From Patescibacteria group bacterium (GTDB lineage Bacteria; Patescibacteriota; Microgenomatia; JAMCZE01), in NCBI GenBank assembly GCA_023485845.1, contig JAMCZE010000001.1, positions 62,456-126,455 on the forward strand: DNA of 64,000 nt. The letters are read 5' to 3'. Positions 1 to 64,000 of this stretch are shown here, piece by piece; position 1 is the first letter of the stretch; each line of letters opens with the position of its first letter. The notes below the pieces were generated by a model, which saw only the letters and a list, made by a program, of their open reading frames with translations, did no database searches and was not told the DNA's origin. Both the position numbers and the translations under genes were made by a program.

Positions 1-671
1 GCTTTCGCGGTGACATTCTTAATTTATTCTACTATTCTTCGTTGGCGGCTTTTGTTGGTTGGGCAACAGTGAAATTCCGTCAAGAGAAACCAAAGGTCAT
101 TGTTTTGGGCAGTTGGCTTTTGATTGGTGTCTTGGGCGTCGGCTCATATCGGGGAACGCTATATGAGCATTATTTTAATATCCTCTACCCATTGCCGTTT
201 TTGTTTTTAGGCCTAGGCGGCAGTTGGTTATTAAGCAAGAAATATTTATGGGTAATTTTTGTGATCGCCCTGGCCGGTTTGATCTATTTACAGCAGCCAA
301 AGATGTTCTTCTATCAGCCGCCGAACAATCTTCTTACCCAAACACAGGATATTGATAAGATAGTTCTAGCCGAGGCTGACGGCAAGCTCTTTAACTTTGC
401 TTTAATTGCTCCCGGCAACAGCGATCATGCCTATCTCTATTTTCTTGAAATTTGGCACCAATCCCCGGTAACAATCTTAAATTCTGATTTAGATCCGCAG
501 CGAAAAACCGTGACGGACCAATTGATTGTGGTCTGTGAACAGAAAGATTGCGCTCCGCTGGGCAATCCGGCGTGGGAAATTGCCGGCTTCGGCCGCGGAG
601 AAATTGTAGACAAGCTTATCGGCCCCGCTGGGATTATGATCTATAAATTGATACACTACACTGGTAAATGA
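1..671 (+). CDS. 3' portion of a PMT/ArnT-like GT-C membrane glycosyltransferase (5' end lies upstream of the window)
   Basis: The frame is open from nt 3, so the gene begins upstream. TM helices are followed by a soluble C-terminal domain whose end (..PLGNPAWEIAGFG..) parallels the C-terminus of the 30402..31883 paralog (..PAGAPAFEIGTI..). Stop overlaps the next start (ATGA). Confidence 0.5.
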   Translation, partial: FRGDILNLFYYSSLAAFVGWATVKFRQEKPKVIVLGSWLLIGVLGVGSYRGTLYEHYFNILYPLPFLFLGLGGSWLLSKKYLWVIFVIALAGLIYLQQPKMFFYQPPNNLLTQTQDIDKIVLAEADGKLFNFALIAPGNSDHAYLYFLEIWHQSPVTILNSDLDPQRKTVTDQLIVVCEQKDCAPLGNPAWEIAGFGRGEIVDKLIGPAGIMIYKLIHYTGK

Positions 672-1447
672 AAAAAGTTTATCTTTCCGTGGTGATTCCC
701 TCATATAACGAGACGGAGAATTTGCGCCGGGGGGTGTTGGAGGAGGTTAAAAGCTACCTGTCCAAGCAAAAATATTCCTGGGAAGTGATTGTGTCCGATG
801 ATGCCTCGCCGGATGAAGAGTCGCGCCGGCTGGCCAAAGATTTTTGTGATCGAAATAGGGGTTTCACTTATTTGCAGAACCAGCACGGTGGCAAGCCGCT
901 GGCGGTTTGGGCCGGAATTCAAAAAGCCGTTGGGGAATTAGTTTTATTCACCGATATGGACCAGTCAACCCCCATCGGCGAGTTGGAAAAGTTGCTGCCG
1001 TATTTTGACCGGGGTTTTGACGTGGTCATCGGCAGCCGGGGATTGGAAAGGAAAAACTTTTCCCTGTTCCGCCAGTTGGCCTCATTTATCTTTCGTAACA
1101 TTCGCCGCTCGGTGCTGTTGCGAAAAATTGTGGACACCCAAGCCGGGTTTAAGTGTCTGCGTGCCAGTGTGGCTAGAGAGATTTTCCCGGTGATGGACGT
1201 GATCGCCAGTGCCGGAAAAGGATCGCAAGGTTGGACAGTAACGTCGTTTGATGTGGAAATGCTGGTGATTGCCCAAGACCGCGGTTATAAAATTGCCGAA
1301 GTGCCGGTTTCCTGGGCGGATCGGGACATCTCGGTGGCTAAAGCCGCCGAACGGGGCCAGGGGAAATTTATCAAAGAATCCATCGATATGCTCCAGGAAG
1401 TCTACCGAGTCAAATTTAACCAACTGCGCGGCCGATACAAAAAATGA
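668..1447 (+). CDS. GT2 glycosyltransferase, soluble DPM1-like polyprenol-phosphate sugar synthase type
   Basis: N-terminal VVIPSYNE..SDDAS..D.D signature of GT-A/GT2. Paralog of 31880..32635. ATGA overlap with upstream gene. Confidence 0.8.
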   Translation: MKKVYLSVVIPSYNETENLRRGVLEEVKSYLSKQKYSWEVIVSDDASPDEESRRLAKDFCDRNRGFTYLQNQHGGKPLAVWAGIQKAVGELVLFTDMDQSTPIGELEKLLPYFDRGFDVVIGSRGLERKNFSLFRQLASFIFRNIRRSVLLRKIVDTQAGFKCLRASVAREIFPVMDVIASAGKGSQGWTVTSFDVEMLVIAQDRGYKIAEVPVSWADRDISVAKAAERGQGKFIKESIDMLQEVYRVKFNQLRGRYKK

Positions 1448-2496
1448 TTATCTTTTTCTATCTTCTTGTCTTAGCCGTCCTTGGCGTTTATTCCTATTCG
1501 CAGATTGACCTTAATCTAACTCTTCTCCAAACACCGTGGTTCCTTTCTTTCCAGCACTTGATGATTCAACTTGGTTATTTTAATCGTCTGCTCTCGACGG
1601 CCATTTTTGCCGGATTGTTGCTTTTGCTCTTTTTATTCTACCTTCTCCTTTTGCGACAGAAACCGAATTTGTTCATTCTGGTTGCCGGGGTGGTGGTCCT
1701 GACGCTGTTTGCCTACCCGGCTTTCTCCCATGATTTTTTTAATTATCTTTTTGACGCGAGAATAGTTACCCACTATGGCCAAAATCCTTACTTTTTTAAA
1801 GCCCTGGATTTCCCCACCGACACTTGGACGCGGTTTATGCAGTGGACGCACCGGACCTATCCCTATGGCCCCATCTGGCTGGCTCTCACCGTGCCGCTTT
1901 CCTATCTTGGCTTTGGTAAGTTTATTCTCACCGTTTTTAATTTTAAAATCATGTTTGCCGCGGCCTATGTTGGCTCGGTGGTTTTGATAAAAAAGTTGTC
2001 CGGAGTGAAGAACGCTCTTTTTTTTGCTGCTAACCCATTGGTCATTATTGAGGGACTGGTTAGCCCGCATTTAGATGCGGTAATGGCCTTCTTTTTTCTT
2101 TTTGCCCTTTATCTTTTGCCCCGGCAACGGTTATTGGCAATGATTTCTGTTTTACTCTCCGGGGGGGTTAAGTTTTTGACCTTTGTCACCCTGCCGTTTT
2201 TTTTCTGGCCGAAAAAAATAGTCGAGCGGTCCTTAGTTATGCTTTTGCTGGTTTTAATTCCGGTGATCATACTACGAGAAGCCTATTCCTGGTATTTCCT
2301 GCCACCATTGGCGGTGGTGGCGCTGATTAACAATCGGACCCTTTGGATTCTGGCGGTGGCCACCACTTTCGGATTACTGCTGCGTTATTTGCCCTTTCTC
2401 TATCTTGGCCAGGAAAGTTTGGCCCCGGAGAATCTTTTGACAATTGTTCCGGTGGTGCTATGCGGTTTAGGTCTTACCTTTTACCGGCGGCGCTGA
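1444..2496 (+). CDS. Polytopic membrane protein, GT-C superfamily (DUF2029/GT87-like mannosyltransferase-like)
   Basis: About 9 predicted TM helices. Loop motif SHDFFNYLFDARI..GQNPYFF..YPYGP is shared with 27612..28976 and 5461..6588. No HMM was run. Confidence 0.55.
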   Translation: MIIFFYLLVLAVLGVYSYSQIDLNLTLLQTPWFLSFQHLMIQLGYFNRLLSTAIFAGLLLLLFLFYLLLLRQKPNLFILVAGVVVLTLFAYPAFSHDFFNYLFDARIVTHYGQNPYFFKALDFPTDTWTRFMQWTHRTYPYGPIWLALTVPLSYLGFGKFILTVFNFKIMFAAAYVGSVVLIKKLSGVKNALFFAANPLVIIEGLVSPHLDAVMAFFFLFALYLLPRQRLLAMISVLLSGGVKFLTFVTLPFFFWPKKIVERSLVMLLLVLIPVIILREAYSWYFLPPLAVVALINNRTLWILAVATTFGLLLRYLPFLYLGQESLAPENLLTIVPVVLCGLGLTFYRRR

Positions 2497-3743
2497 TTAT
2501 TTTTGGTTTGGCGCTGCGGTTCTATCAACTCCAAACCCGGGCGGGATTTGATTTTGATCAGGAAACAGCGGCCTGGTGGGTGCGGGATTTGTTGGTCAAC
2601 CATAAATTCTCTCTGATCGGCCAAGAAATCTCTGTCGGCGGAGTGTTTATTGGCCCGGCCTTCTATTACTTGTTGGCAGTTTTTTATGCTCTTTTTCGCT
2701 TTGATCCGGTGGCCGGCAATGTCATGGTGACGGTGGTTGCCGGAGCGACAATGTTAATGGTATATCTTGCCGCCCGTCGGTTGTTTGACCAAAAAACAGC
2801 CCTTTTATCCTTATTTCTTTATGCCATTTCTTCCTCACTGATTTTTTATGACCGGACAGTGGCGCCCTCAAATCTAATTATGCTCTTGTCGGTGGCAGCG
2901 CTCTATTTTCTTCTTCGACAATCATATTTTTGGTTAGGGGTGATTACCGGTCTGTCATTTAGTGTCCATCCGACGGCCGTGCTTCTTTTACCAATCATTT
3001 TTCTTTATAAAATTAAAATTACCAAAAGGCAATTATCGCTGTTCACTATTCCGGTGCTGCTTTTGGTTTCTCCGCTAATTATTTTTGACCTGCGGCACCA
3101 ATTTCTTAATATTCTCGGATTGGTTCACGGACTAGCCTCGTCGGGGATTGTTGACAGTGCTTATCCGGTGCCGTTTAAATTTTTGATTAATCTGCGGATT
3201 TTATTTGTTTCCTTGGCCCAGGTTGTGCTGCCGATAAATAACTGGTTAGTGAAATTCGCCATGGTTGGAATGGTGGGGTGGGCCATAAGAAAAAAGCGGC
3301 CGGCATGGTTATGGATTTTAACGCCGGCGGTGGCTTTAAGTTTCTACCGCCTCCATGTGCCGGAATATTATTTCTTAATGGTTTTTCCGGTGGTGCTGAT
3401 CCATTTTGGAAACTGGCTTTCTCGTTGGCCAAAAGTTTTTCTGGGGCTGTTTCTGGGCGTCACCGTCTTTTTTAATTTGCAGAATTTCTTCGCCTTTCGC
3501 AATCCAGTGAATCTAGCGGACAAAAAGGCGGCCGTTGCCACCATTGCCGCCCAGTCTGCCGGCGCCACAGTGGCTGTTAATGTTAACGCCGACCTGGGGC
3601 AAAATAACGGGTTTAATTATCTGTTCACTTTCTACCATCTGCGACTCTCGAGCGACGCTGATAAAAAATTTACGATTTTTGTGCCCTCACAACGATCCAC
3701 GGCCAGTGGGGAAATATTTGGTAATATTAAGGTGGTCCGATGA
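2460..3743 (+). CDS. GT-C glycosyltransferase, ArnT/PMT (GT39/GT83)-like
   Basis: The ORF-track start at 2343 overlaps the upstream gene. Internal ATG at 2460 gives MRFRSYLLPAALIIFGLALRFYQL (N-terminal TM) followed by the FDFDQETAAWW DE-type motif. Paralog of 7428..8909. Confidence 0.6.
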   Translation: MRFRSYLLPAALIIFGLALRFYQLQTRAGFDFDQETAAWWVRDLLVNHKFSLIGQEISVGGVFIGPAFYYLLAVFYALFRFDPVAGNVMVTVVAGATMLMVYLAARRLFDQKTALLSLFLYAISSSLIFYDRTVAPSNLIMLLSVAALYFLLRQSYFWLGVITGLSFSVHPTAVLLLPIIFLYKIKITKRQLSLFTIPVLLLVSPLIIFDLRHQFLNILGLVHGLASSGIVDSAYPVPFKFLINLRILFVSLAQVVLPINNWLVKFAMVGMVGWAIRKKRPAWLWILTPAVALSFYRLHVPEYYFLMVFPVVLIHFGNWLSRWPKVFLGLFLGVTVFFNLQNFFAFRNPVNLADKKAAVATIAAQSAGATVAVNVNADLGQNNGFNYLFTFYHLRLSSDADKKFTIFVPSQRSTASGEIFGNIKVVR

Positions 3744-5464
3744 AGAAAAAAACTTTTGCCATAATTTTTGCTTTAATTCTCTTGGTTGGTTTGGGATTGC
3801 GGACGTGGCGGCTCAATGATTTACCGGTGGGACTGCACTTTGACGAGGCCCAGGCGGGCTATAATGCTTATCTTCTTGGCCTAACCGGCAAGAACATCCA
3901 AGGCCAATTCCTGCCGATCTATATTGATTCCTGGGGAGACTATCGCCCCGCGCTGGTGGCCTATGCCTCCATCATCCCAGTGAAGCTTTTCGGGTTGTCT
4001 CCTTTTTCCACCCGGTTGCCCATTGCCCTAACCGGAGTGCTCTTGGGAGTGATTGCTTATGTTTTTTGTGTCAAGTTTTTTAAAAACAAAATCATGGGGC
4101 TATTGGCGATGGCATTGGTGATGGTCTCACCATATGGCTTTATCACCAGTCGGGGAACTCTTGAAGGCATCTTTGATGTGGTCCTTAGTCTCGCCGCCGT
4201 CTTGCTGTTGGTGCGGTTCTTTGAGACTAAACATACCCGTTGGCTACCGGCAGTTTATTTCCTTTATCTCCTGGCCTATTTTTCCTATCAAACCTCCCGG
4301 GCCCTCACGCCGTTTTTCTGGCTGGCCACGGTGGGCCTCTGCTTTTGGCAGTTTCGGCCCAATAAAAAATTACTGCTGCTGGTGGTGCTGCCATTAGTGG
4401 CTTATGTGGTCTTTCCTTGGTTTTATTTTTTCCGCACACCGGTGGGCCTGGGCCGTTTTGACCAGGTGAGCGTTTTCACCTATCCGGAAGTCCAACATAA
4501 TTTAAACACGGACATTGCCGAAGATGGTCCGAACGCTAACCCGCTGGTGGTTCGAGTGTTTCATAATAAAGTCCTGGCTTATGCCTTCGACATTGGTCAG
4601 CGCTATGTCACTTTTTTCTCACCCAACCCGATGCTCTTTTCCATGCGGGAGCCGGGGCGCCACTATGTGGAAAATGTCGGGGCAATCACGATGGTGGAAT
4701 TCATCGGCTTTTTGCTGGCGGCGGCTATCTTCCTTAATCGCCGTTACCCACCCTTAACTTATTTACCGCTGGCCCTACTTTTCCTGGCCCCTTTGCCGGC
4801 CGCTCTCACCATTGAGGGTTTTCCTAATTTTTCCCGGATTGTGTTTTTTGTTCCCCTTTGGCAGGTGGTGGCCGCATTTGGTCTGGTGACTTTTTTGAAA
4901 AACAAAAAATTGCTTGTTTTACCGTTAATCCTTCTGGCTGGTTGGCAGTTTATCGCCATGCTCCATGCCTATTTTGTCCACGAGCCGGTGCATTATTGGT
5001 CAATTGACACCCGCAGCACGGAAATGAAAAGTCTGGCTCTCTTTTTGAAAAAAGAGAGAGATGAGAATAAAAATATCATCCTCTCTCAATATGACGGCGG
5101 CTATATCTACTATCTGTTTTATAACCAAATTAATGTTTTCGATGTCCCCGTCGTTAAAACCAGACCATATTTTACCGGCCGGTTTTCTCTTGATGTCATT
5201 GATTTTTCCAAGAATGACTGTGTTGACCCGGATGATCTGATGGCCAAAAAATATGATGTTTTAGTCATGCGGGCTGGCTGCTTCCAACCAAGATTTGGCC
5301 GGGAGATTAGCCAGTTTAAGCGTTCCGACGGATCGCTGGTGCTTCGCGCCTACGATCTAACCGGATCGGCCTCCCAGATTTATCTTGATTATTTTGAGTC
5401 AGTGCCAAATAAACAGACAATTAATAATATCCGTGGAGCAATGGGCTTTTCTCTCTTGCCATGA
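3740..5464 (+). CDS. GT-C glycosyltransferase, PMT/ArnT (GT39/GT83) family
   Basis: AAGGTGG RBS 6 nt upstream of ATG. N-terminal TM then LHFDEAQAGYNAY motif (classic H-F-D-E loop-1 of PMT/ArnT). 574 aa polytopic protein. Confidence 0.75.
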   Translation: MKKKTFAIIFALILLVGLGLRTWRLNDLPVGLHFDEAQAGYNAYLLGLTGKNIQGQFLPIYIDSWGDYRPALVAYASIIPVKLFGLSPFSTRLPIALTGVLLGVIAYVFCVKFFKNKIMGLLAMALVMVSPYGFITSRGTLEGIFDVVLSLAAVLLLVRFFETKHTRWLPAVYFLYLLAYFSYQTSRALTPFFWLATVGLCFWQFRPNKKLLLLVVLPLVAYVVFPWFYFFRTPVGLGRFDQVSVFTYPEVQHNLNTDIAEDGPNANPLVVRVFHNKVLAYAFDIGQRYVTFFSPNPMLFSMREPGRHYVENVGAITMVEFIGFLLAAAIFLNRRYPPLTYLPLALLFLAPLPAALTIEGFPNFSRIVFFVPLWQVVAAFGLVTFLKNKKLLVLPLILLAGWQFIAMLHAYFVHEPVHYWSIDTRSTEMKSLALFLKKERDENKNIILSQYDGGYIYYLFYNQINVFDVPVVKTRPYFTGRFSLDVIDFSKNDCVDPDDLMAKKYDVLVMRAGCFQPRFGREISQFKRSDGSLVLRAYDLTGSASQIYLDYFESVPNKQTINNIRGAMGFSLLP

Positions 5465-6588
5465 AGATTTTTGCTTTCCCTCTTAGCTTAGCAACGGTTA
5501 TTTTTCTGGGCTTTCAGCAACGCTGGCACTACACTTTAAGTGGGGATCTAATTAACTACTACTATCCGATTGCCCGGCATGTTTGGACCGCAGGCACACT
5601 GATTTATCCGCCCGGGGCCAATCTCTTCTTTCTGTCTTTGCCGGCGATGTCTTTTAGTATTTATCAAGTTGCTTTTATTTGTGTCGATATAATTTTTCTT
5701 TTAATTTTGTTGGCACTGACCAAGAAACCGATAATGCTCGGGCTATTAATCCTGGCAGCCGGACCGATCATCCTGTTTCGCTTTGATCTTTTGGTGGTCA
5801 CACTAATGGTTGCCGCCTTAGTGTTTTTTCAGCGGCTCCGTTATGGTCTTTCTGGATTTTTCTTGGGGCTGGCCGTGGCCACGAAAATTTTCCCCATCGT
5901 TCTGTTGCCATATTTGTTGTTAGTGGCTGGGCGAAAGTTCGGGAGATTTCTTCTGGCCTTTGTCGCTGCCATTGTTTTGGTTTTTCTCGTTTATGCTGGG
6001 ACCACCGGCCAAAGTATGCCGGCAATCATTGCCAACATGGGTTTTGTTTTTTCCGGGACGGTGCATATGGAATCCGTGCTGGGAACGGTGCTAACCATGG
6101 TGACGGCCTTCACCAATCCCGGACCGCATGGTGTCAGCTTTGTGGCTGCTGTTTGGGCCCTGGATCCGCTGTATTATTTGGGTCATGAGCGGCTTTTCCG
6201 GCTTCTTCTCCCCGTGAGCATAGCTGTAATCTATTTAATTATCTTTCTGCGCCGTCCGAGAATGCTGGACATATCCGTCTGCTTACTGCTTATCGGCACG
6301 ATGATTGCCGCTTCGCAACTTTTCTCACCGCAATACATGATTTGGCTGGCCTTCCTCTTGCCGCTGGCAAAGAACAACAGGGTCAACAGTATTCTTGTGT
6401 TGGCGGCGCTGGTTTGCACCCAATTAATTTATCCTTTAAACTATGGCGAATTGATTGACTTTTTTAACAAGGGGGCCAATTTACATTTATTTCTAATTCT
6501 GGCCGCTAGGAATTTTCTGTTAGTTGCCTTTGTCTGGCGCCTGGTAAAATATGAACTCTTGCCGATTCTGCCGGCGAAAAAGTCTTAA
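5461..6588 (+). CDS. Polytopic membrane protein, DUF2029/GT87-like GT-C
   Basis: Motifs SGDLINYYYP..YPPGA and LAVATKIFP; about 10 TM helices; ATGA overlap. Confidence 0.5.
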   Translation: MKIFAFPLSLATVIFLGFQQRWHYTLSGDLINYYYPIARHVWTAGTLIYPPGANLFFLSLPAMSFSIYQVAFICVDIIFLLILLALTKKPIMLGLLILAAGPIILFRFDLLVVTLMVAALVFFQRLRYGLSGFFLGLAVATKIFPIVLLPYLLLVAGRKFGRFLLAFVAAIVLVFLVYAGTTGQSMPAIIANMGFVFSGTVHMESVLGTVLTMVTAFTNPGPHGVSFVAAVWALDPLYYLGHERLFRLLLPVSIAVIYLIIFLRRPRMLDISVCLLLIGTMIAASQLFSPQYMIWLAFLLPLAKNNRVNSILVLAALVCTQLIYPLNYGELIDFFNKGANLHLFLILAARNFLLVAFVWRLVKYELLPILPAKKS

Positions 6589-56410: not shown

Positions 56411-57322
56411 ATGTTAGGCGCTGAGACTGCTACAGAACGAAAAGAGGGAATTGACCCCAGATCGATTGCCATTTGTGCTGCCACGTTTTACAAAACCTGG
56501 ATGCCAGGGGAGAGAACAGCTCCTAATATTGATATTGACCGCGGCGACGCTTCCTTACAAGCTTTTGAATTAGCCCAAAGGGCTGGGTATCAAATGGTGG
56601 TGGTGGATGGTGGTAGTTCGGACGCCTATTTAAACGAGGCTAGGGAGCGCGGTGTTTTATTACTGTCCCAACAGGAAAAGAGTATTTCATCAGCAAAAAG
56701 GCAAGCGTTCAAAGCCGCTCAAGAATCAAAGGGCTGTCGGTTTATTATCCTAATTCAGCCGGAAAAAGACTCCATTATTAAGGATGTGCCACAAATTATT
56801 CGACCGATTTATTCCGATGGAGCAGATGTTGTCGTTGCTAGTCGAGATCCGATTCTTTTTAGAGACACATACCCGTCTTTCCAATATGAATCAGAGAATT
56901 GGGCGAATAGACAATGTAATAGAATTGCTCATCTGATGAAAATTCTTCCACTCGGCGCAAATTTAGATTGGTTTTTTGGGGTAAAAGTCTTTAGAAACAC
57001 CCCAGAGATTGTGGCCTTATTTGTGAGAAAATTTCAGATTACTGACGAATCTTATGCTAAAAAGAATAATCTTGACCCGGAAAGATACTTTGATGTGGAC
57101 TTCTTTCCGATAGTTGAGGCTTTGCGAATTGGGAAAAGGGTTGTGGATGTTCAAGTTCCCTTTGAATATCCCAGGCCACAAAAAGAAATGGAGGAGACTT
57201 TACAAGAGAAATTTGTAGAAAAAAGACGACTTCAAAGAAGAAGCATCTTAACCGAATACGTCCAGTATTTTCGACTCTTAACAAAAAGCCAAAAGAATAA
57301 ATTGATGGAGTCAGAGGCATGA
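56411..57322 (+). CDS. Divergent GT-A-fold glycosyltransferase-like protein
   Basis: VVVDGGSSD (DxD-like) and ..FGVKVFR.. pattern. No confident family assignment. Confidence 0.4.
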   Translation: MLGAETATERKEGIDPRSIAICAATFYKTWMPGERTAPNIDIDRGDASLQAFELAQRAGYQMVVVDGGSSDAYLNEARERGVLLLSQQEKSISSAKRQAFKAAQESKGCRFIILIQPEKDSIIKDVPQIIRPIYSDGADVVVASRDPILFRDTYPSFQYESENWANRQCNRIAHLMKILPLGANLDWFFGVKVFRNTPEIVALFVRKFQITDESYAKKNNLDPERYFDVDFFPIVEALRIGKRVVDVQVPFEYPRPQKEMEETLQEKFVEKRRLQRRSILTEYVQYFRLLTKSQKNKLMESEA

Positions 57323-58506
57323 AAAATAATTTGATAGGTAAGGGACATAAGCCAACTAAGAATCAATCGACCTTTAATAAGGCAATATCTCTTCAAAGTC
57401 ATCTAAAGAATTCAAATTTTCCTAAAATTCGGAATTTTATCATAAATGACCCAGACTCAATTAGATTTGAACCATTTTTGAACAGAGATCTACTTAGGTT
57501 AAATTTAGAGAGTCTGCAAAAAATAAAGCCGAATGAGACTAAGGTAATAAAGCAGGTGAAAGAAGAAATTGGCCGTATTGACAAAATTGTTAATAAAACA
57601 CCAGATATTATGACTAAGAATCTTCGGCCTTTATCACGAAGCTTAAGTAAGTCACCGAAGGTTTCGATTATCACAACTTCAATGAACCTGGCTCCACTAT
57701 TAGATGAGACGATGAGATCGATTTTCAATCAGGAAGGGGATGATTATGAATATATTGTCATTGATGGCGGATCGTCTGATAACTCTTTAAAGTTAATGAA
57801 GAAATACCCAATTTCGGTTTTGATTTCCGAAAAAGACAGTGGCTATCCAGAAGCTTTCTGGAAAGGGCTACGTTTGGCAAAAGGGAAGTATATTATGCAG
57901 TGTTGTATTTCTGATGGCTATGCTTCACCATCTTGGGTCAAGAAATGTGTCCAATTTCTTGATAGCCATAAAGATATCTCTTTGGTTTGGGGAAATGCGT
58001 CTGGTTTATCTGCAAAAGGTCAAATGGTTGATATTACTTATCCGCGTTTTGTTTACGAAGAGGCACCGCAGGGTGAACAAATGTTTTCTTATTGGTTAAA
58101 GACGGCATTTCATTACCCGGAGGTAAACCTATGCGTCAGGAAAGAAGTTATTCTTAAATGCTATCCACCCATGCCCTGGCGAAACGAAGATATGTTGGAT
58201 TGGTTGGAATTTGACTACCGGTTTAATAAATCAGGTTATCTTTCAAAATATTTACCGATTCTGGCCAGTTTTCATTATCTTGAGCACGGCAACAAATTAG
58301 GCAAGAAACTTGACAAAAATGGTTGGTACCAGAGAGTATTAAAAATACACAAAAGAAGAATTTGGTTTTACAAATGGCAGTTATTACTTGGTTTTGCTAC
58401 ACACCGTTTTGTAAACTCTAAAGAAGAAGAACTATCTACCAAGTTTGATCACAACAAGTTAAGACAAGAAACGCTTTCAGAAATTAAATCACATCTGCTG
58501 CAATGA
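57319..58506 (+). CDS. GT2 glycosyltransferase with C-terminal extension
   Basis: VSIITTSMN..YEYIVIDGGSSDNS GT2 signature. Confidence 0.7.
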   Translation: MKNNLIGKGHKPTKNQSTFNKAISLQSHLKNSNFPKIRNFIINDPDSIRFEPFLNRDLLRLNLESLQKIKPNETKVIKQVKEEIGRIDKIVNKTPDIMTKNLRPLSRSLSKSPKVSIITTSMNLAPLLDETMRSIFNQEGDDYEYIVIDGGSSDNSLKLMKKYPISVLISEKDSGYPEAFWKGLRLAKGKYIMQCCISDGYASPSWVKKCVQFLDSHKDISLVWGNASGLSAKGQMVDITYPRFVYEEAPQGEQMFSYWLKTAFHYPEVNLCVRKEVILKCYPPMPWRNEDMLDWLEFDYRFNKSGYLSKYLPILASFHYLEHGNKLGKKLDKNGWYQRVLKIHKRRIWFYKWQLLLGFATHRFVNSKEEELSTKFDHNKLRQETLSEIKSHLLQ

Positions 58507-59528
58507 AAAAAATTTTTCTTGCAGTTCCGAACCCACTTTTCGCGAATAATGGTATATTTACCCGGAAGGATTGGAATCATACATTTGACTGCTGGAGGGG
58601 GTTAAGAGTTCGATTAAAAAAACTTGGTTATAGCCTTACTACTCCCGATAATAATTCACTATCAGGTTGCGAGTGGGTGATTTTTATTGATACGTCAAGC
58701 GTTGATGGTCTTTCCAGTGATAAAAGTTGGCCTAATAGGCAATTATATTCAGAAGCATTAAGAGTAAACCTAAAAAGTAAAATGATATTGTTTCTGTGGG
58801 AAGGAAAAGTTATTAATTCCATCAATTACGCAAGAGAAACGTGGGATAAGTTTGATAATATTTTTACCTGGGATGATGATTTAGTAGACAACCATAAATT
58901 TCACAAATTCTATTTGCCCGTACCGAATGTGCCACCGGTTAAAAAAACTATACCGTTTAATAAAAAAAAATTATTGGTTAATATCTCAATAAATAAATAT
59001 GCAAAAGGACCGAATGAATTATATTCAGCCAGGAGAAAAACGATTGAATATTTTGACAATAACTTTCCTAATGATTTTGATCTTTTTGGCCCTCGATGGA
59101 ACAAGCCAATAAACACTTTTCAAAAATATCTTCCCTGGACATGGAAAAAATATCGTACATATCGCGGCGTGTCGTTTAATAAACTTAAAACCTTGTCTCA
59201 ATATAAATTTACCCTTTGCTATGAGAATATGACAGGTTCAAAGGGGTGGGTGACAGAGAAAATATTTGATGCCCTTAAAGCTAAAAGTGTGCCTATATAT
59301 TGGGGGGCGCCAAATATTGGAAAGTATGTAGACAATGATGTGTTTATTGACAGGCGAAATTTTTCTAGTGAAGAGAAACTGGCAAAATTCCTGATGCATA
59401 TGACAGAAAATGAATATAATAACTATATAATCTCCGGCGAGCAATATATAAAAAGCAGCAGATTTAATAAATTTTCATCTAGATATTTCGGCGACACGAT
59501 CCTAAAACTACTTAAAATTAATGCATAA
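58503..59528 (+). CDS. GT10-family (alpha-1,3-fucosyltransferase-like) glycosyltransferase
   Basis: KFTLCYENMTGSKGWVTEKIFDALKAKSVPIYWGAP matches the GT10 motif of H. pylori FutA (KFxLxFENS..GYVTEKI.DA....PIYWG.P) as I recall it. Confidence 0.7.
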   Translation: MKKIFLAVPNPLFANNGIFTRKDWNHTFDCWRGLRVRLKKLGYSLTTPDNNSLSGCEWVIFIDTSSVDGLSSDKSWPNRQLYSEALRVNLKSKMILFLWEGKVINSINYARETWDKFDNIFTWDDDLVDNHKFHKFYLPVPNVPPVKKTIPFNKKKLLVNISINKYAKGPNELYSARRKTIEYFDNNFPNDFDLFGPRWNKPINTFQKYLPWTWKKYRTYRGVSFNKLKTLSQYKFTLCYENMTGSKGWVTEKIFDALKAKSVPIYWGAPNIGKYVDNDVFIDRRNFSSEEKLAKFLMHMTENEYNNYIISGEQYIKSSRFNKFSSRYFGDTILKLLKINA

Positions 59529-60333
59529 TATGGCTAATTTAGCCAAGCGACTTATTCTCTTATTGGCACAGTTGTTCAATATTAATCTGACACTTTTAGC
59601 CTATCGGGCAAACGGGATTTTGAATTCTGGTTCGCTTAGCAAGACGGGAGAGCAATTTGTTATCGACGAAGTGCTGCCAAAATTAATCGCCGCCAAAATA
59701 CCAATTTTTTTTGATGTTGGTGGCGATACTGGAGAAACTTCGGAGGAATTAATCAAAAAATTTCCTAACAGTAGACTCTTTTCGTTTGAACCAAACCCCA
59801 TTGGATTTATAGCGATGAGGAATAAGCTTAAGGCATACCCCCATGTCATATGCGAGAACTTAGCACTTGGTAATAAATCAGGGAGAGTTAAATTATATCG
59901 ATATCAAAAGTATAAAACTGGGCTGATCACGGGATCAAAAGTTGCGTTATCAGAGTTCTACAGAACGCGCGGTAAGATAGTTGAATTTTCTCGCTCCATG
60001 AAGACAATCGATCAATATTGCGGACTACGTCAAATTAGAACCATAGATTTTCTGAAAATCGATGTTGAAGGTAACGAACTAAACGTGTTAAAAGGCGCAA
60101 AAAAAATGATTAAACAGAACAAAATTAAAACCATTCAGTTTGAGTTTAACAATTTTAATGTTATTAACAGAACGTTTTTGTATGACTTTTATAAGTTGTT
60201 GCCCAATTTTGACTTATATCGAATTAGGAGAGGGGGTCTGGTTTATTTAGACCATTATGATAGTATAAATGAGATTTTTAAATTCCAAAATATACTTGCA
60301 GTGATAAAACATGGTAATGACAAAACAATTTGA
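59521..60333 (+). CDS. FkbM-family SAM-dependent methyltransferase
   Basis: FFDVGGDTGETS, FEPNP, IDFLKIDVEGNELNVLKGA motifs typical of Methyltransf_21 (FkbM). Confidence 0.75.
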   Translation: MHNMANLAKRLILLLAQLFNINLTLLAYRANGILNSGSLSKTGEQFVIDEVLPKLIAAKIPIFFDVGGDTGETSEELIKKFPNSRLFSFEPNPIGFIAMRNKLKAYPHVICENLALGNKSGRVKLYRYQKYKTGLITGSKVALSEFYRTRGKIVEFSRSMKTIDQYCGLRQIRTIDFLKIDVEGNELNVLKGAKKMIKQNKIKTIQFEFNNFNVINRTFLYDFYKLLPNFDLYRIRRGGLVYLDHYDSINEIFKFQNILAVIKHGNDKTI

Positions 60334-61129
60334 TGTTCCTATTCTACTGTTAATTTTTAATCGACCTGAGATGACAAGAAAAGTGTTGGCATCTATCAGG
60401 TTGATAAAGCCGAAAAAGTTATACATTGCGGCTGATGGGCCAAGAGACAAGGGCGATATCTCTAAATGCCTTGCGGCTAGGAAAATCGTTAAGGAAGTTA
60501 ACTGGCCTTGTCGGGTAAAAACTCTCTTCCAAGACAATAATTTGGGTTGCGGACTTGGACCTGTGACCGGTATTAATTGGTTCTTTAAGCATGTGGAAGC
60601 AGGAATTATTCTGGAAGATGATTGCCTGCCAGCCCCCTCCTTTCTTTACTTTTGTCAGGAATTATTGAACCACTACTGGAATAATTCCAGTATAATGCAC
60701 ATCAGTGGTAATAATTTCCAATATGGCAAAAAATTTGGGCATGGGTCTTATTATTTTTCGCAATATACTCACAATTGGGGTTGGGCTACCTGGCGCCGCG
60801 CCTGGAGACATAATAACTACCGACTTTTAAGCCGGGAGAAAAGAAAACAAGTGTGGGATAAACAATGGCTCATGTCGGTGGAAAAGGCAAAGGGGCTGGC
60901 GATTCTTCCAAATGTTAATTTGGTTTCTAATATCGGGTTTGGAGCTGAGGCAACGCACACAAAAAAGATAGAACGATATGCCAAGCTTCCACTTCAGACA
61001 ATGAAATTTCCGCTAGTTCATCCAAAGTCCATATCAAGGAATGTTATGGCTGATTTTCTCACCTACCATAACCATTTCGGAGGGAGCACTCTTGGCTTTA
61101 TCTTTCAGGAGCTGTCTAAATTAATATGA
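60311..61129 (+). CDS. GT-A-fold glycosyltransferase, GNT-I/HlpA-like
   Basis: LLIFNRPEMTRKVL..LYIAADGP..GIILEDDCLP motifs. Tentative. Confidence 0.45.
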   Translation: MVMTKQFDVPILLLIFNRPEMTRKVLASIRLIKPKKLYIAADGPRDKGDISKCLAARKIVKEVNWPCRVKTLFQDNNLGCGLGPVTGINWFFKHVEAGIILEDDCLPAPSFLYFCQELLNHYWNNSSIMHISGNNFQYGKKFGHGSYYFSQYTHNWGWATWRRAWRHNNYRLLSREKRKQVWDKQWLMSVEKAKGLAILPNVNLVSNIGFGAEATHTKKIERYAKLPLQTMKFPLVHPKSISRNVMADFLTYHNHFGGSTLGFIFQELSKLI

Positions 61130-62010
61130 ATATCCTTAATCCAATTACCAAAAATAGAAATGTTGTTTTGGAAGAAAAAATTTCCATTTCTCGTGTTATT
61201 AGAGAGTATCGAGACCAACTGCATGTTAATGTTAGACGGTTTTTTCGTGGCCATAAAGAAATAAGCATCTATCGGTGTTTAGACACCGGGTACCGTTTTT
61301 ATTACCCCTTTAATCTTGCTGGTGACAGTTTGTTTTACCAAAGACTAGAAAGATTTCGTTGGTATTACATGGATTGGAAATGGGAGCAGGAAATTGCCCA
61401 GAAAGAAATCAGCCACACAGATGTCATCCTGGAGATTGGCTGTGCTAGGGGTGGGTTTCTCGACAAAGTCAAGACAAGTTGCAGAGAGAGTATCGGATTA
61501 GAGACAAACCAAAAGGCCCTGACTGCCGCCAGAAAGAGAGGTTTGAGTGCTTTTAATCAAACGATCGAGGAATATGCTAAAGCTAATAAAAGGCAATATG
61601 ATGTCGTCTGTTCGTTTCAGGTTCTTGAGCATATTCCTGATGTTCAAGGCTTTATTTTGTCTTCGCTTGCCGTCTTAAAAAAGGGCGGAAAAATGATTAT
61701 TAGTGTGCCCAATAACGATAGCCTTGTGATTCGAAACAATAATATTGCCTTAAACTTTCCGCCCCATCATATGGGGCTGTGGAACCTTAATTCATTAATC
61801 AAGATTCAGAATTTTTTTGATATACGACTTGATAAAATCTTGCTTGAGCCGCTGCAGCCCTATCACTTAGGTTTTGCCCAAAGACGTTTTGCGATGAGCT
61901 CGGGTAAATTGATAAGGCTCATGCCAAAAAGTGTCACGGCCGGTATTATAGAAGCAGTTAGGGAAGATATTATTGGCCACACAATTATGGCTGTCTATAT
62001 AAAGAAATAG
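61126..62010 (+). CDS. Class I SAM-dependent methyltransferase
   Basis: ILEIGCARGGF (motif I), DVVCSFQVLEHI..LKKGGKMIISVP (motifs II/III). Confidence 0.75.
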   Translation: MNILNPITKNRNVVLEEKISISRVIREYRDQLHVNVRRFFRGHKEISIYRCLDTGYRFYYPFNLAGDSLFYQRLERFRWYYMDWKWEQEIAQKEISHTDVILEIGCARGGFLDKVKTSCRESIGLETNQKALTAARKRGLSAFNQTIEEYAKANKRQYDVVCSFQVLEHIPDVQGFILSSLAVLKKGGKMIISVPNNDSLVIRNNNIALNFPPHHMGLWNLNSLIKIQNFFDIRLDKILLEPLQPYHLGFAQRRFAMSSGKLIRLMPKSVTAGIIEAVREDIIGHTIMAVYIKK

Positions 62011-62012
62011 TT

Positions 62013-64000
62013 ATGAGACAAGAGAATTCTATTAGTTTTGTTATGCCAGCGTATAACAGTGAACGTACCGTTAATGAGGCAGTTGAGTCAATTATTAATG
62101 GAAACCTTATAGACGGAGATGAGATTATTATTGTGGACGACGCGTCCACGGACAAAACGACAGAAAGGATTCAGACTTTAGCCGCAAAATATCCCATAAT
62201 AAGAATAATTCGTAACAGAGTGAACAAGGGTTGTCCAGCCTCAAGAAACATTGGAATAAGAGCGGCAAAAAATCTTCTCATTTTTAATCTTGATGCGGAT
62301 GATGTTTTGATAGCCGGAAGTGTTTCTAAACTGAAAGAATATCTCCTTTTTGAGAAAGCAGATGTCGCCGCCTTCGGAGAAATTCATTTTTTTAAGAATA
62401 ATACAAACGAAGTCACACATCGCTGGATACTTCCGTCTGGTATTCTTACTTTGGCAGACTATTTATCTGGACCGTATGTGCCCGGGGGAAATTATCTTTA
62501 CACTAAAAAAAGCTGGGCAAAAGTTAATGGCTATTGGGAATACGGAAAAGGACTTCATGAATTTTGGGGATTTAGCCTTAAACAAATTGCCTCTGGGTCA
62601 AAATTTATAGTGTTAGCAAACACCTTCTATTATCATCGATACAACCATAAGTCTCTTTTTATCCGGGAAACCAGTAGCAGTGATGACAGCTCTTTAATGG
62701 CAACGAAAATGACAAAGCCATTTCTTTCTTTAATAGAACCTCATGATCGGCAATATATTGAAAGTGAAGAGGGTAGCCGAACGTGGTTTACAAATCTGTC
62801 TAATCATCCGATCCGTGTCAAAAATAAAGAGATCGGCCGGCAAGGTATAAAGGAGGTTCTCGAGAAAAAAACGCGACCGTTTTTTGGCGGTTGGATTGGA
62901 TCAAAAGTGGAACGAGCACATGATTATTATCGATTTGCTAAGGACTTTGTAGCTTTTAAATCCATCCAAAATGATCGTTTCTTGGTTTCATGGAGAGATA
63001 GTCGACCCAGATTAGGTGAGGACACACCCAATACTGTCTTTGATCCCCATTACATCTATCATACTGCTTGGGCTGCTAGAATTTTGTCAAAGATCAAGCC
63101 AAAATATCATACCGATATATCATCTATTCTCTACTTTAGTTCGATTATTTCTGCCTTTATACCGGTAAGATTTTACGATTACCGTCCTGTTAATTTAAGG
63201 TTAAATAATTTAACCTCCGGCTTCGCGGATCTGACAAAGTTACCGTTTGCTGATAACAGCATCCCTTCACTTTCGTGCATGCATACCGTTGAACATATTG
63301 GGCTAGGTCGGTATGGGGACAAGCTTAATCCAGATGAAGACCTCCGGGCAATAAGCGAATTAAAAAGAGTTCTCGCCTATGGGGGGTCACTTTTGTTTGT
63401 GGTACCCATTGGTCGGCCAAGAGTTTTATTTAATGCCCACCGCATATATTCTCTAAATCAGGTCATCTCTTATTTTCCCGATCTTGAGTTAAAAGAATTT
63501 TCCTTAGTGCCAGACGACTATGATCGATTGGGAATGGTAGATAATCCGTCGGAGGAATTTTGTAACCAGCAAGATTACGCTTGCGGGTGTTTCTGGTTTA
63601 CAAAGAGGGAGCTCAAAACTTTTGGAAGTAGAAATAGTAAAAAATACTCAGTCGATGTAGTGATACCCGTCTACAACGGACAAGACTACATCATTCAAGC
63701 GATTGAGTCTGTCAATAAACAGACTTATAAACCGAATAAAATTATTGTTGTTGACGATGGGTCGACAGATAAAACGCCGGCGTTAATTAAACGTCTGAGG
63801 AAAAGCAATCAGACATTATTTTATTTGCGAAAAAGAAGAGGAGGGCCGAGCTCTGCCCGCAATGTTGGTATTAAATATAGCAATGCTGAATTCATTGCTT
63901 TTTTAGATGCTGATGATGTTTGGGAGTCAGCTAAACTGGAAAAACAAATTAAACTGTTTAAAAATAGCGACAATCAAAATTTAGGCGTTGTTTATTGCAA
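62013..64000 (+). CDS. Large multidomain protein GT2 - DUF268-like methyltransferase-fold domain - GT2, 3' end beyond window
   Basis: Hand-translated: no stop from ATG 62013 to nt 64000, so the ORF track omits it. N-terminal SFVMPAYNSERTV..IIIVDDASTDKT..LDADD. Middle ..SCMHTVEHIGLGRYGD..LAYGGSL..NAHRIYS. C-terminal VDVVIPVYNGQDYI..IIVVDDGSTDKT..LDADD. Confidence 0.6.
   Translation, partial: MRQENSISFVMPAYNSERTVNEAVESIINGNLIDGDEIIIVDDASTDKTTERIQTLAAKYPIIRIIRNRVNKGCPASRNIGIRAAKNLLIFNLDADDVLIAGSVSKLKEYLLFEKADVAAFGEIHFFKNNTNEVTHRWILPSGILTLADYLSGPYVPGGNYLYTKKSWAKVNGYWEYGKGLHEFWGFSLKQIASGSKFIVLANTFYYHRYNHKSLFIRETSSSDDSSLMATKMTKPFLSLIEPHDRQYIESEEGSRTWFTNLSNHPIRVKNKEIGRQGIKEVLEKKTRPFFGGWIGSKVERAHDYYRFAKDFVAFKSIQNDRFLVSWRDSRPRLGEDTPNTVFDPHYIYHTAWAARILSKIKPKYHTDISSILYFSSIISAFIPVRFYDYRPVNLRLNNLTSGFADLTKLPFADNSIPSLSCMHTVEHIGLGRYGDKLNPDEDLRAISELKRVLAYGGSLLFVVPIGRPRVLFNAHRIYSLNQVISYFPDLELKEFSLVPDDYDRLGMVDNPSEEFCNQQDYACGCFWFTKRELKTFGSRNSKKYSVDVVIPVYNGQDYIIQAIESVNKQTYKPNKIIVVDDGSTDKTPALIKRLRKSNQTLFYLRKRRGGPSSARNVGIKYSNAEFIAFLDADDVWESAKLEKQIKLFKNSDNQNLGVVYC

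Follow-up and report, generated by a model that had tools for sequence, protein, structure and literature searches.

Introduction

Why should a single bacterium carry about 21 loci for glycosyltransferases (GTs) of the membrane-embedded GT-C type, packed together with glycan genes of other kinds? The question is raised by a 64,000-nucleotide (nt) stretch of DNA from a Patescibacteria group bacterium (assembly GCA_023485845.1, contig JAMCZE010000001.1, positions 62,456 to 126,455), which was analysed over its whole length and is called the window below. On balance, and with moderate confidence, we read the window as the middle part, 64 kb long, of a locus for cell-envelope glycans, whose GT-Cs would use lipid-phosphate sugars to glycosylate or elongate envelope glycopolymers outside the membrane. 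Machinery of this kind is known; what is unusual is its scale, its setting in the Candidate Phyla Radiation (CPR), its conserved core, and a GT-C family that standard annotation passes over. A literature search found no published description of a GT-C expansion in the CPR/Patescibacteria, which is no proof of novelty.

CPR bacteria have tiny genomes, typically of about 1 Mb, and many of their biosynthetic pathways are missing. Their envelope mediates attachment to hosts and exposure to phages; to our knowledge, its chemistry is essentially unknown.

A locus built almost entirely of glycan genes

The window contains 60 open reading frames (ORFs; g1 to g60), 57 of them on the + strand and three on the - strand (12343-13929, 34162-35151, and 35001-35528); a further minus-strand ORF of 72 amino acids (aa), at 13914-14132, lies beyond the 60. 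Searches of the window ORFs against Pfam, NCBIfam, and the Protein Data Bank (PDB) sort them into GT-C enzymes (24 ORFs, 21 loci), GT2 enzymes (10), GT4 enzymes (nine ORFs, eight loci), a GT10 enzyme, transport proteins (four), a DUF2304 protein, sugar-precursor enzymes (six: g28, g29, and g50-g53), methyltransferases (three: g7, g57, and g59), and two others, g22 and g58, the only ORFs to which no glycan-related role could be assigned. No tRNA genes were found in the 64-kb window. In longest-ORF coordinates 99.4% of the window is coding, and 46 of the 54 same-strand junctions overlap and 53 lie at 10 nt or less, 17 being 4-nt ATGA junctions; the longest-ORF starts, which take the first possible start codon, overestimate some of these overlaps. 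A sequence-only reading of the window had described glycan machinery nearly throughout, mostly on one strand and with overlapping genes, and these counts, with 58 of 60 ORFs glycan-related, bear it out.

The same reading had spoken of a “super-operon”. The tight junctions stand, but a single operon is not established: because there are three strand switches along the window, with three minus-strand genes interrupting the array, and a sharp break in GC content at third codon positions (GC3) at ~45.2 kb (the g43/g44 boundary, ~45186), the window is better described as a mosaic of at least three modules. GC3 is about 0.52 before the break and about 0.38 after it, with ranges of about 0.46-0.60 in g1-g43 and about 0.31-0.49 in g44-g60. 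An 88-nt gap before g54 holds a promoter-like site, consensus scans at the two largest gaps being uninformative. Having 57 of 60 genes on one strand gives p = 3e-14 without strand bias, but only 1e-3 to 0.14 if the leading strand normally carries 80-90% of genes; GC skew is positive in most intervals along the sequence and its cumulative sum climbs overall. Co-orientation alone is thus weak evidence, and functional homogeneity is the real signal.

The GT-C enzymes

GT-C enzymes make up about 21 loci in 24 ORFs and cover 31.0 kb, i.e., 48% of the whole window, rising to 67% over the first 46.3 kb; the earlier estimate of “at least 14” was too low. The GT-C genes other than the split ones and those of the conserved core, both described below, are as follows.

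g1, 1..671, + strand: C-terminus of a 492-aa PMT_2-type GT-C that starts upstream (gene 8526-10004 of contig L001, with PF13231)
g3, 1444..2496, + strand: MptA/B-like GT-C, 350 aa, nine transmembrane (TM) helices; precomputed match to PF26314 (MptA_B_family); paralogue of g24
g4, 2460..3743, + strand: PMT_2 GT-C; PF13231 44.4 bits
g5, 3740..5464, + strand: PMT_2 GT-C, 574 aa, family A; PF13231 26.4 bits against a cut-off of 26.1
g6, 5461..6588, + strand: GT87-type GT-C; PF09594 34.2 bits
g8, 7410..8909, + strand: PMT_2-like GT-C; BLASTP match to g4, E 8e-12
g9, 8884..11181, + strand: YfhO-family GT-C, 765 aa; PF09586 88 bits
g18, 19966..22104, + strand: YfhO-family GT-C, 32% identical to g9; PF09586 56.8 bits
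g21, 24181..25650, + strand: PMT/PMT_2 GT-C; PF02366 39 bits, PF13231 37.5 bits
g23, 26035..27627, + strand: PMT/PMT_2 GT-C; PF13231 49.4 bits, PF02366 48.8 bits
g24, 27612..28976, + strand: MptA-like GT-C; precomputed PF26314 match; GT87 18 bits
g25, 28954..30405, + strand: PMT_2 GT-C; PF13231 44.8 bits
g26, 30402..31883, + strand: PMT/PMT_2 GT-C; PF13231 38.6 bits, PF02366 35.7 bits
g40, 41309..42598, + strand: PMT_2 GT-C; PF13231 33.7 bits
g43, 43592..45199, + strand: PMT/PMT_2 GT-C; PF13231 32.9 bits, PF02366 32.4 bits
g44, 45186..46283, + strand: GT-C candidate, 365 aa, nine TM helices; first low-GC3 gene (GC3 0.39)

Pfam gathering scores are passed by 13 GT-C ORFs: g4, g5, g19, g20, g21, g23, g25, g26, g40, and g43 for PMT_2/PMT, g6 for GT87, and g9 and g18 for YfhO, a family linked to LTA/WTA glycosylation, where both clear the PF09586 cut-off of 28.5 and one more copy is found upstream of the window. 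The profile searches that the sequence-only reading had proposed returned GT-C families for these membrane proteins, and DUF2304 was found on g35. The candidates g3, g8, g10/11, g12, g13, g24, g30/31, and g44 score below the Pfam threshold for the curated GT-C families in the copy used. For g8, which has no Pfam match of its own, the profile of its family aligns with the PMT_2 paralogues of the window at 98.8% probability (hhalign, E 6e-17); g24 matches TIGR03459 (MptA) at 59.7 bits, under the cut-off; and g44 is probably a GT-C, judging from 16.6 bits to PMT_2, 36.8 bits to the LA_3751/2 family, and 60% probability in hhalign. Searches of the PDB by sequence and profile gave no meaningful match for g13 and g23.

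Their shape is consistent. The complete candidates (among g3-g9, g12, g13, g18, g21-g26, g40, g43, and g44) have 6-11 hydrophobic segments in a simple hydropathy scan, and the split or fragmentary pieces 2-7. In every candidate an acidic motif (DEA, DD, HD, or DQ) stands right behind the first TM helix (TM1), its Asp being invariant in the g12, g13, g8, and PMT_2 alignments, and most N-termini are rich in K/R. Because of this motif and the basic N-termini, the candidates fit an N-in topology with the catalytic loop on the outer face, which agrees with the DE/DD-type loops that had been expected there; on that face they would use polyprenol-(di)phosphate sugars as donors. Confident structure models of g12 and g13 both show the GT-C fold.

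The paralogues fall into several families and are 25-42% identical; for example, g5, with the motif HFDEA after TM1, shares 25-34% identity with g19/20, g21, g23, and g26. They are old rather than recent duplicates, and recent tandem gene amplification can be ruled out as the origin of the array, one 455-bp intragenic duplication aside. Six ORFs (g19, g20, g21, g23, g26, and g43) match PMT (PF02366) at 22.8-48.8 bits; since Pfam finds no MIR domain in any window protein, they were not taken as true PMTs, i.e., GT39 enzymes with lumenal MIR domains. It should be mentioned that g3 is intact in the window, whereas an extra T at window position 2043 splits it in contig JAMCSA010000023.1.

Split and disrupted GT-C genes

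Three GT-C loci are split or disrupted: the g10/g11 pair, described with the conserved core, and the two listed here.

g19 and g20, 22101..24181, + strand: one PMT/PMT_2 GT-C gene broken by a tandem duplication; PF13231 43 bits on each piece
Duplication, 22222..23131, no strand: perfect 455-bp tandem repeat in two copies, with 5-bp ATGCT microhomology at the junction
g31 and g30, 34162..35528, - strand: PMT_2-like GT-C split into 175 and 281 aa

Removing one 455-bp copy restores the g19/g20 ORF, which is an intact gene of 541 aa in contigs L086 and L087. The duplication is absent from JAMCSA010000023.1 and from Logan contig SRR10278331_74496, both otherwise identical to the window, and could be either a real on/off variant in the population or an assembly artefact. 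The homologues of g30/31 are single proteins of 447-514 aa that mostly cover more than 90% of the concatenated pieces (the closest 100%), and many carry PF13231 or bear the name GT39. g30/31 is a probable frameshift pseudogene, and the same split is present in JAMCSA, hence in at least two assemblies.

Candidate donor synthases and a DUF2304 partner

A GT-C that works outside the membrane would need a lipid-linked donor, and candidates for its synthesis are present. Seven GT2 enzymes lie in the first 40 kb and three in the tail of the window (g54, which is weak, g55, and g60). The sequence-only reading had counted seven small GT2s of the lipid-phosphate-sugar synthase type; the seven are there, and five of them (g2, g15, g27, g34, and g36) resemble polyprenol-phosphate-sugar synthases, whereas g16 and g32 are generic.

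g2, 668..1447, + strand: soluble GT2 like the DPM1/ArnC catalytic domain, 259 aa; PF00535 86 bits
g15, 17187..18113, + strand: membrane-anchored GT2 of the GtrB/ArnC/CsbB type, 308 aa, two C-terminal TM helices
g16, 18115..18921, + strand: generic GT2; PF00535 41.9 bits, N-terminal part only
g27, 31880..32635, + strand: soluble DPM1-like GT2; PF00535 85 bits; NCBIfam matches to PgfS, ArnC, and dolichyl-P-hexose transferase
g32, 35553..36428, + strand: generic GT2; PF00535 68 bits, N-terminal part only; SunS-like match at 51.6 bits
g34 and g35, 37346..38350, + strand: PpgS-like GT2 and small DUF2304 membrane protein, a GacI/GacJ-type pair
g36, 38347..39048, + strand: DPM1/AglJ-like GT2; best PDB match the Pyrococcus furiosus Dol-P-Man synthase 5MLZ, E 9e-15

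The clearest case is g15, which combines a GT2 domain, two C-terminal TM helices, and full-length similarity to its type: residues 6-305 align with GtrB (PDB 5EKP) at E 3e-77, and the match to ArnC has E 4e-51. The g34 protein matches PpgS at 166.5 bits over its full length (3-201 of 226 positions), and g35 starts 3 nt after it and scores 87.7 bits to PF10066 (cut-off 25.5). The pairing has precedents, for GacJ is a DUF2304 protein and Rv3632 stimulates PpgS (10.1101/180810). Short GT2s of the DPM1/PpgS type, about 220-260 aa, are represented by g34 and g36 (AglJ 112.6 bits), and more weakly by g2 and g27, whose DPM1/ArnC-like matches reach 45-67 bits; g16 and g32 are not of this type, and g16 has no polyprenol-P-synthase signature in NCBIfam. 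The NCBIfam matches of g2 (ArnC, PgfS, and dolichyl-P-hexose transferase) all lie under the equivalog cut-offs, as does the PgfS score of g15 (245 bits, cut-off 500).

Flippases, exporter, and GT4 enzymes

The remaining parts that had been named in the sequence-only reading, i.e., eight GT4 enzymes, a Wzx flippase, an ArnE/F-like subunit, a Wzm/Wzt pair, and sugar-nucleotide enzymes, were all matched by the profile searches.

g14, 15745..17190, + strand: Wzx/MOP-family flippase; PF13440 144.5 bits; NCBIfam MOP flippase 114.6 bits
g38, 40110..40439, + strand: small 4-TM transporter subunit of the EamA/ArnE-ArnF-like kind; PF00892 36.2 bits (cut-off 28.2)
g48 and g49, 49521..51575, + strand: Wzm permease of the ABC-2 type (PF01061 76.6 bits) and Wzt ATPase (PF00005 76.7 bits)
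g17, 18918..19982, + strand: GT4; PF00534 64 bits
g33, 36250..37377, + strand: GT4 (longest-ORF start); PF00534 116.7 bits
g37, 39059..40120, + strand: GT4; PF00534 97.6 bits
g39, 40423..41388, + strand: GT4; PF00534 90 bits
g41 and g42, 42607..43601, + strand: split GT4, 158 and 173 aa; PF13439 on g41, PF00534 127 bits on g42
g45, g46, and g47, 46243..49512, + strand: three GT4s; PF00534 100, 68, and 83 bits

The Wzx assignment of g14 fits its 11 hydrophobic segments, and g49 carries the carbohydrate-binding Wzt_C domain of a polysaccharide exporter (PF14524 34.7 bits, cut-off 30.4). By contrast, g38 can be called ArnE/F-like and no true ArnE/ArnF flippase, being a single gene rather than a pair and scoring 42.8 bits to ArnF (cut-off 99) and 38.4 to ArnE (cut-off 92). 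A GtrA-family flippase (PF04138, 59.3 bits) is encoded not in the window but 1.2 kb upstream of it, at 8123-8557 of L001. Pfam counts eight GT4 loci, one of them split, with g41 and g42 as separate N-domain and C-domain ORFs that overlap by 4 nt. Matches of several GT4s to PF20706 (GT4-conflict) were not adopted as signs of a defence system, as they are weaker overlaps of ordinary GT4 domains.

Taken together, GT2, flippase, and GT-C genes are present many times over, and the three-part logic that had been proposed for the window is there in its gene content.

A conserved core around an unannotated GT-C family

In the window, a minus-strand gene stands beside a short run of genes whose arrangement recurs elsewhere.

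g10 and g11, 11154..12454, + strand: two-gene paralogue of g13, 235 and 201 aa
g12, 12343..13929, - strand: GT-C-fold protein, 528 aa, of a family without a Pfam model
72-aa ORF, 13914..14132, - strand: detached N-terminal segment of the g12 family
g13, 14151..15764, + strand: PTPS_related/YfhO-like GT-C, named “YfhO family protein” by NCBI

Neither Pfam, NCBIfam, nor the PDB, the last searched by sequence and by profile, gave a match for g12. Its structure model is nevertheless confident (pLDDT 92.7, pTM 0.90), and the top 21 Foldseek matches, all with E ≤ 0.001, are oligosaccharyltransferases (STT3, PglB, AglB) or DPY19, after which the list continues with ArnT, AftA, Pmt, and Emb. The C-terminal domain resembles the globular domain of the AglB oligosaccharyltransferase. 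Two simple identities can be rejected: g12 is not counted as an oligosaccharyltransferase of the STT3/PglB/AglB kind, as it has neither a WWD/WWE motif (WWDxG in those enzymes) nor an STT3 (PF02516) match and is alike at the level of the fold only, and it is not simply a diverged PMT_2, as profile comparison of its family with the window PMT_2 paralogues gives 3.5% probability. The family comprises 2,416 representatives at 50% identity, and 33 of 36 sampled members have no Pfam match. In the clade of g12, a separate ORF encodes the opening ~70 residues of the N-terminal extension seen in the family: the translation of the 72-aa ORF matches, by eye, the N-terminus of a 645-aa homologue (P0134), and the ORF is called as a gene in contigs L086 and L091. 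Just 18 nt separate this divergent fragment from g13.

The g13 protein and g10/11 have no Pfam match of their own in the copy used, and their homologues carry PF10131, PF13231, or PF09586. The AlphaFold2 model of g13 (pLDDT 89.8) combines a GT-C fold with a C-terminal beta-sandwich and a terminal TM helix; the sandwich is extracytoplasmic in the model and weakly like ancillary domains of glycoside hydrolases. In BLASTP, g10/g11 is 39% identical to g13 in the N-terminal half and 24% in the C-terminal half. A relative with 71% identity (L093, 12676-13958) has the same two-gene arrangement with a 13-nt overlap, for which reason a frameshift pseudogene was rejected; the split is probably genuine and looks like a conserved gene fission.

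In metagenome contigs, scanned with a 14-sequence subset of the g12 alignment (the 38-sequence alignment being too diverse), homologues of g12 stand divergently beside a g13-like gene and Wzx, with GT2, GT4, and YfhO on the other side. In other words, other Microgenomates contigs also contain the core of g12, g13, Wzx, GT2, GT4, and YfhO; family-A PMT_2 arrays, too, are found in further contigs. A scan of representative genomes with the YfhO protein g9 gave no match. In short, the window holds an enlarged form of a locus that is conserved.

Assembly, flanks, and source organism

Logan contigs from SRR10252151, SRR10278331, and SRR10267473, as well as GCA_023379465.1, match the window at 100% identity; contig JAMCSA010000023.1 of GCA_023378825.1 does so at 99.98-99.99%, and L001 at 99.99%. 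JAMCSA010000023.1 covers the window to about 55.6 kb, and Logan contig SRR10252151_40713 covers it from about 27.3 kb onward and continues past its end, spanning the composition break; the stretch of about 55.7-57.5 kb is supported by Logan read-set assemblies alone.

The glycan locus reaches past the window by at least 6 kb on the upstream side and 8 kb on the downstream side, for a total length of at least 78 kb. Upstream lie genes for secreted Ig-like, fn3, and CAP proteins, an RmlA-like nucleotidyltransferase, YfhO, trmD (- strand), two GT2s, GtrA, and PMT_2; downstream come the remainder of g60 and then genes for another Wzm/Wzt pair, for an acetyltransferase, methyltransferases, and GT2 enzymes, and for a GT11. 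The window itself has no obvious target gene, as had been noted from the sequence, and inspection of the flanks for targets, proposed at the same time, turned up the secreted or membrane-anchored Ig-like, fn3, and CAP proteins 6-9 kb upstream (L001 1-3003), which have Pro/Thr/Ser/Ala-rich linkers.

The trmD gene (L001 5933-6646, - strand) lies about 2.7-3.4 kb upstream, inside the glycan locus on the opposite strand, and among named genomes its best matches are in Amesbacteria, Gottesmanbacteria, and Microgenomates (57-60%). Identical proteins at NCBI are labelled “Patescibacteria group bacterium”, and named homologues of window proteins come from Curtiss-, Chisholm-, and Levybacteria. The source is therefore an uncultured member of the Patescibacteria (CPR), most likely of the class Microgenomatia, in line with the CPR-type origin that the sequence-only reading had suggested. 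The trmD-adjacent array of GT2, GtrA, PMT_2, GT2, and MptA/B-like genes is syntenic in Ames-, Woese-, and Shapirobacteria genomes, including a complete Woesebacteria chromosome.

The low-GC module and other genes

From about 45 kb onward, the window changes in character. This third module spans about 46-72+ kb and looks compositionally foreign, as O-antigen loci often are. Its genes beyond the GT4s and the Wzm/Wzt pair are listed here, followed by those genes of the first 45 kb that have not yet been mentioned.

g50 and g51, 51556..53212, + strand: split transketolase-like thiamine pyrophosphate enzyme (N and C halves); PF00456; PF02779 and PF02780
g52, within 53205..56322, + strand: NDP-sugar 4,6-dehydratase/epimerase-like; PF01370
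g53, 54184-56322, + strand: GDP-L-fucose synthase fused to an RfbH/DegT-like pyridoxal phosphate enzyme; PF01370 and PF01041
g54 and g55, 56411..58506, + strand: weak GT2-like protein (PF00535 19.3 bits) and GT2 (PF00535 68.3 bits)
g56, 58503..59528, + strand: GT10 fucosyltransferase-like; PF00852 54.7 bits
g57, g58, and g59, 59521..62010, + strand: FkbM methyltransferase (PF05050 70.7 bits), g58, and S-adenosylmethionine (SAM) methyltransferase (PF13489 59.6 bits)
g60, 62013..64000, + strand: GT2-methyltransferase(DUF268)-GT2, running off the window; PF00535 twice and PF03269
g7, 6551..7441, + strand: SAM-dependent methyltransferase; PF13489 97.9 bits
g22, 25640..26068, + strand: small membrane protein, 142-150 aa, 2-3 TM helices, between two PMT genes
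g28 and g29, 32604..34175, + strand: HddA-like GHMP sugar kinase (PF00288, PF08544) and GmhA-like SIS isomerase (PF13580)

The module looks like an ABC-transporter-dependent glycan cluster rich in genes for fucose, methyl groups, and deoxy- and amino sugars. A fucosylated glycan would fit the fusion protein g53 (Fcl 423 bits, RfbH 224 bits), the GT10 in the window, and the GT11 downstream. The split transketolase-like enzyme sits among the sugar-nucleotide genes, and g60 is 849 aa at full length, as seen in contigs L003 and L004. No family match in Pfam or NCBIfam was found for g58 (272 aa, 60311-61129) and no significant one for g22, which has weak BLAST similarity to g5 and g20. In the first part of the window, g28 (HddA 162 bits) and g29 (GmhA 117 bits), both under the equivalog cut-offs, are putative heptose-precursor enzymes.

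A model for glycosylation outside the membrane

From the gene families, folds, synteny, taxonomy, and assembly integrity described above, we infer the donors, the flipping steps, the acceptor, and the co-regulation and expression of these genes in the following model. (i) On the cytoplasmic face, GT2s would attach single sugars, taken from nucleotide sugars, to polyprenol phosphate; the enzymes would be g15 (GtrB type), g34 with g35 (PpgS/GacI-GacJ type), and g36, g2, and g27 (DPM1 type), with a possible contribution from the two upstream GT2s. (ii) Small flippases would carry the lipid-phosphate sugars to the outer face, the candidates being the upstream GtrA, g38, and possibly the Wzx protein g14. 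(iii) About 21 diverged GT-Cs of the PMT_2/PMT-like, YfhO, MptA/B- and GT87-like, PTPS_related-like, and g12 families would then act outside the membrane, each adding its own sugar or linkage. The acceptor might be a polymer that GT4 and GT2 enzymes make on the inner face and Wzm/Wzt exports (the third module), or a Wzx-flipped unit built by g16 and g17. Much of the glycan might even be elongated outside the membrane rather than merely decorated there, as in mycobacterial lipoarabinomannan and arabinogalactan.

Glycopolymers are more likely acceptors than proteins, because YfhO (two copies in the window and one upstream), MptA/B-like (two), and GT87 (one) enzymes are present, g13 has a beta-sandwich, export of both the ABC and the Wzx kind is encoded, and neither MIR domains nor a WWD motif is found.

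Several points weigh against this reading. Functions are read from homology or fold alone; all GT2s miss the NCBIfam equivalog cut-offs, so that sugar specificity is not assignable from the matches; and about 5-7 candidate donor synthases stand against about 21 GT-Cs. Enzymes of the PMT_2/PMT type also glycosylate proteins and lipids, and the upstream fn3, CAP, and Ig-like proteins could be protein acceptors. Not all GT-C and GT4 copies need be active, with g19/20, g30/31, and perhaps g41/42 broken, and the third module, which the GC3 break shows to have a separate history, may be functionally independent. Moreover, Pfam finds no priming phosphoglycosyl transferase, no Wzy/WaaL-type polymerase or ligase, and no LCP ligase in the window, and the start and anchoring of any polymer are therefore unaccounted for in it.

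A bolder version of the model, which we hold to be doubtful, would make the locus an assembly line typical of the Microgenomatia, building the main envelope glycopolymer or lipoglycan largely outside the membrane with more than 20 specialised GT-Cs, in parallel to, but evolved independently of, lipoarabinomannan and arabinogalactan synthesis in mycobacteria. In this version, g12 in the conserved core could transfer Wzx-flipped oligosaccharides en bloc to protein or polymer, and variants arising from duplication and frameshift would switch epitopes within the population.

Alternative explanations

The first alternative, in our judgement somewhat unlikely but to be taken seriously, is that the locus serves mainly general protein glycosylation, with PMT-like and oligosaccharyltransferase-fold GT-Cs acting on S-layer, pilin, or other surface proteins and the ABC and Wzx modules supplying protein-attached glycans, in the manner of the S-layer glycans of Gram-positive bacteria. 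The six GT-C ORFs that match PMT besides PMT_2 could be read in this way, as could the position of g12 next to the Wzx flippase in conserved synteny and the secreted upstream proteins with their Pro/Thr/Ser-rich linkers. The g60 architecture and the heptose-precursor genes recall the S-layer glycan clusters of Geobacillus and Aneurinibacillus. Protein glycosylation by a GtrB-type enzyme with a GT-C also exists in streptococci (PMC12041528). However, no window protein has a MIR, WWDxG, or STT3 match (the domains by Pfam), no WsaB/PglL-type O-oligosaccharyltransferase was detected, the window holds no S-layer or pilin gene, and enzymes of the YfhO, MptA/B-like, and GT87 families are known to act on polymers.

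It is improbable, though close to the model we prefer, that the locus is a lipoglycan assembly line like that for actinobacterial lipomannan and lipoarabinomannan, in which GT4s would prime a glycolipid inside and, after flipping, GT-Cs of the MptA/B, GT87, and PMT_2 types would elongate and branch it outside. PimA and PimB are GT4 enzymes, and the window has eight GT4 genes; g3 and g24 match MptA_B_family, g24 also TIGR03459, g6 is a GT87 enzyme, and the PpgS-like GT2 with DUF2304 is paired as in Mycobacterium tuberculosis Rv3631/Rv3632. The large number of GT-Cs also fits elongation better than decoration of side chains. Against this, all matches to the actinobacterial families stay below the equivalog cut-offs, and Pfam shows neither a phosphatidylinositol-mannoside acyltransferase nor an Emb/Aft-type enzyme; this explanation also overlaps the preferred one, and the sequence does not clearly tell the two apart.

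Very improbable is a third explanation, a variable surface-antigen island, i.e., a hot spot of paralogous and horizontally acquired glycan genes, many of them redundant or decaying under pressure from phages and hosts, whose appearance as a system would come from clustering and leading-strand bias. The GC3 drop at g43/g44, the broken loci g19/20 and g30/31, and the 455-bp duplication and 1-nt indel that distinguish assemblies of near-identical populations would all suit such an island, and with a leading-strand bias of about 90% the co-orientation loses its significance. However, the age of the paralogues, the trmD-adjacent array and g12 core order kept across distant Microgenomates, the conserved and hence probably functional split of g10/g11, and the mostly intact genes with 4-nt overlaps speak against it.

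Finally, a chimeric or mis-assembled contig joining unrelated fragments, which the sequence-only reading had named as a finding that would overturn it and which the composition break at about 45 kb and the missing 455-bp duplication in other assemblies might suggest, is effectively refuted, as independent assemblies overlap across most of the window and two of them (JAMCSA010000023.1 and SRR10252151_40713) overlap across the break itself, 99.98-100% identical apart from the duplication.

What the locus may mean

If the genome is about 1 Mb, a locus of at least 78 kb would occupy several percent of it, a scale that suggests that surface glycans are central to the CPR lifestyle. The locus also illustrates how GT-C families escape standard annotation: Pfam has no model for g12, and g8, g10/11, and g13 have no Pfam match of their own. 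The donor synthases, the flippases, the core module, and the unannotated GT-C family are candidates that can be tested by heterologous expression without culture.

Comparison with known systems

Among known enzymes, STT3, PglB, and AglB resemble g12 in fold alone, the WWDxG motif and STT3 match being absent from g12.

For the third module, the nearest models are the ABC-dependent O-polysaccharide and S-layer clusters with a Wzt carbohydrate-binding domain and methyl caps, such as Escherichia coli O9a (WbdD/Wzt) and Geobacillus stearothermophilus slg with WsaE. Like them, it has Wzm, Wzt with Wzt_C, GT4 and GT2 enzymes, several methyltransferases, a GT2-methyltransferase-GT2 protein, fucose synthesis genes, GT10/GT11, and the low GC typical of O-antigen loci. 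Unlike them, it shows no primer, ligase, or O-oligosaccharyltransferase, has a second Wzm/Wzt pair downstream, and is joined head-to-tail to a GT-C array.

In the Corynebacteriales, lipomannan, lipoarabinomannan, and arabinogalactan are assembled by Ppm1, PimE, MptA/B/C, Emb/Aft, and PpgS-Rv3632-Rv3779. The likeness lies in the many GT-Cs that would work in series from polyprenol-phosphate sugars, elongating and branching outside, and in the MptA/B-like, GT87, and PpgS-like GT2 plus DUF2304 genes, the inner-face GT4s, and the Wzm/Wzt-type exporter of the window. The differences are that the window matches are distant and below equivalog level, that no Emb/Aft or decaprenyl-phosphoarabinose genes are seen, and that the CPR lineage is unrelated; the mycobacterial lipoglycan genes, moreover, are dispersed over a 4-Mb genome, whereas those of the window are clustered.

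The multi-component transmembrane glycosylation systems of Gram-positive bacteria, i.e., CsbB/GtcA/YfhO, Lactococcus lactis CsdA-F/CflA, and Streptococcus pyogenes GacI/J/K/L, share with the window a GT2 (with or without DUF2304), a GtrA-, Wzx-, or small-transporter flippase, and a GT-C (reviewed in PMC8035078; gene-content match also in 10.1101/180810 and PMC11127046). They often use an ABC-exported polymer as acceptor, and the GacI/J/K/L model contains just these parts: an ABC-exported polymer, a GT2 with its DUF2304 partner, a Wzx-type flippase, and a GT-C (10.1101/180810). The counterparts in the window are g15 for GtrB, g34/g35 for the GacI/GacJ pairing, and the two YfhO proteins. In the model organisms of the review, GT-A/GT-C pairs number one to three and lie scattered over the genome (PMC8035078). 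The window, unlike these systems, gathers about 21 GT-C loci, several of them of families without a Pfam model, and 5-7 candidate synthases in about 50 kb of a probably very small genome, at a ratio of GT-Cs to synthases of about 3:1.

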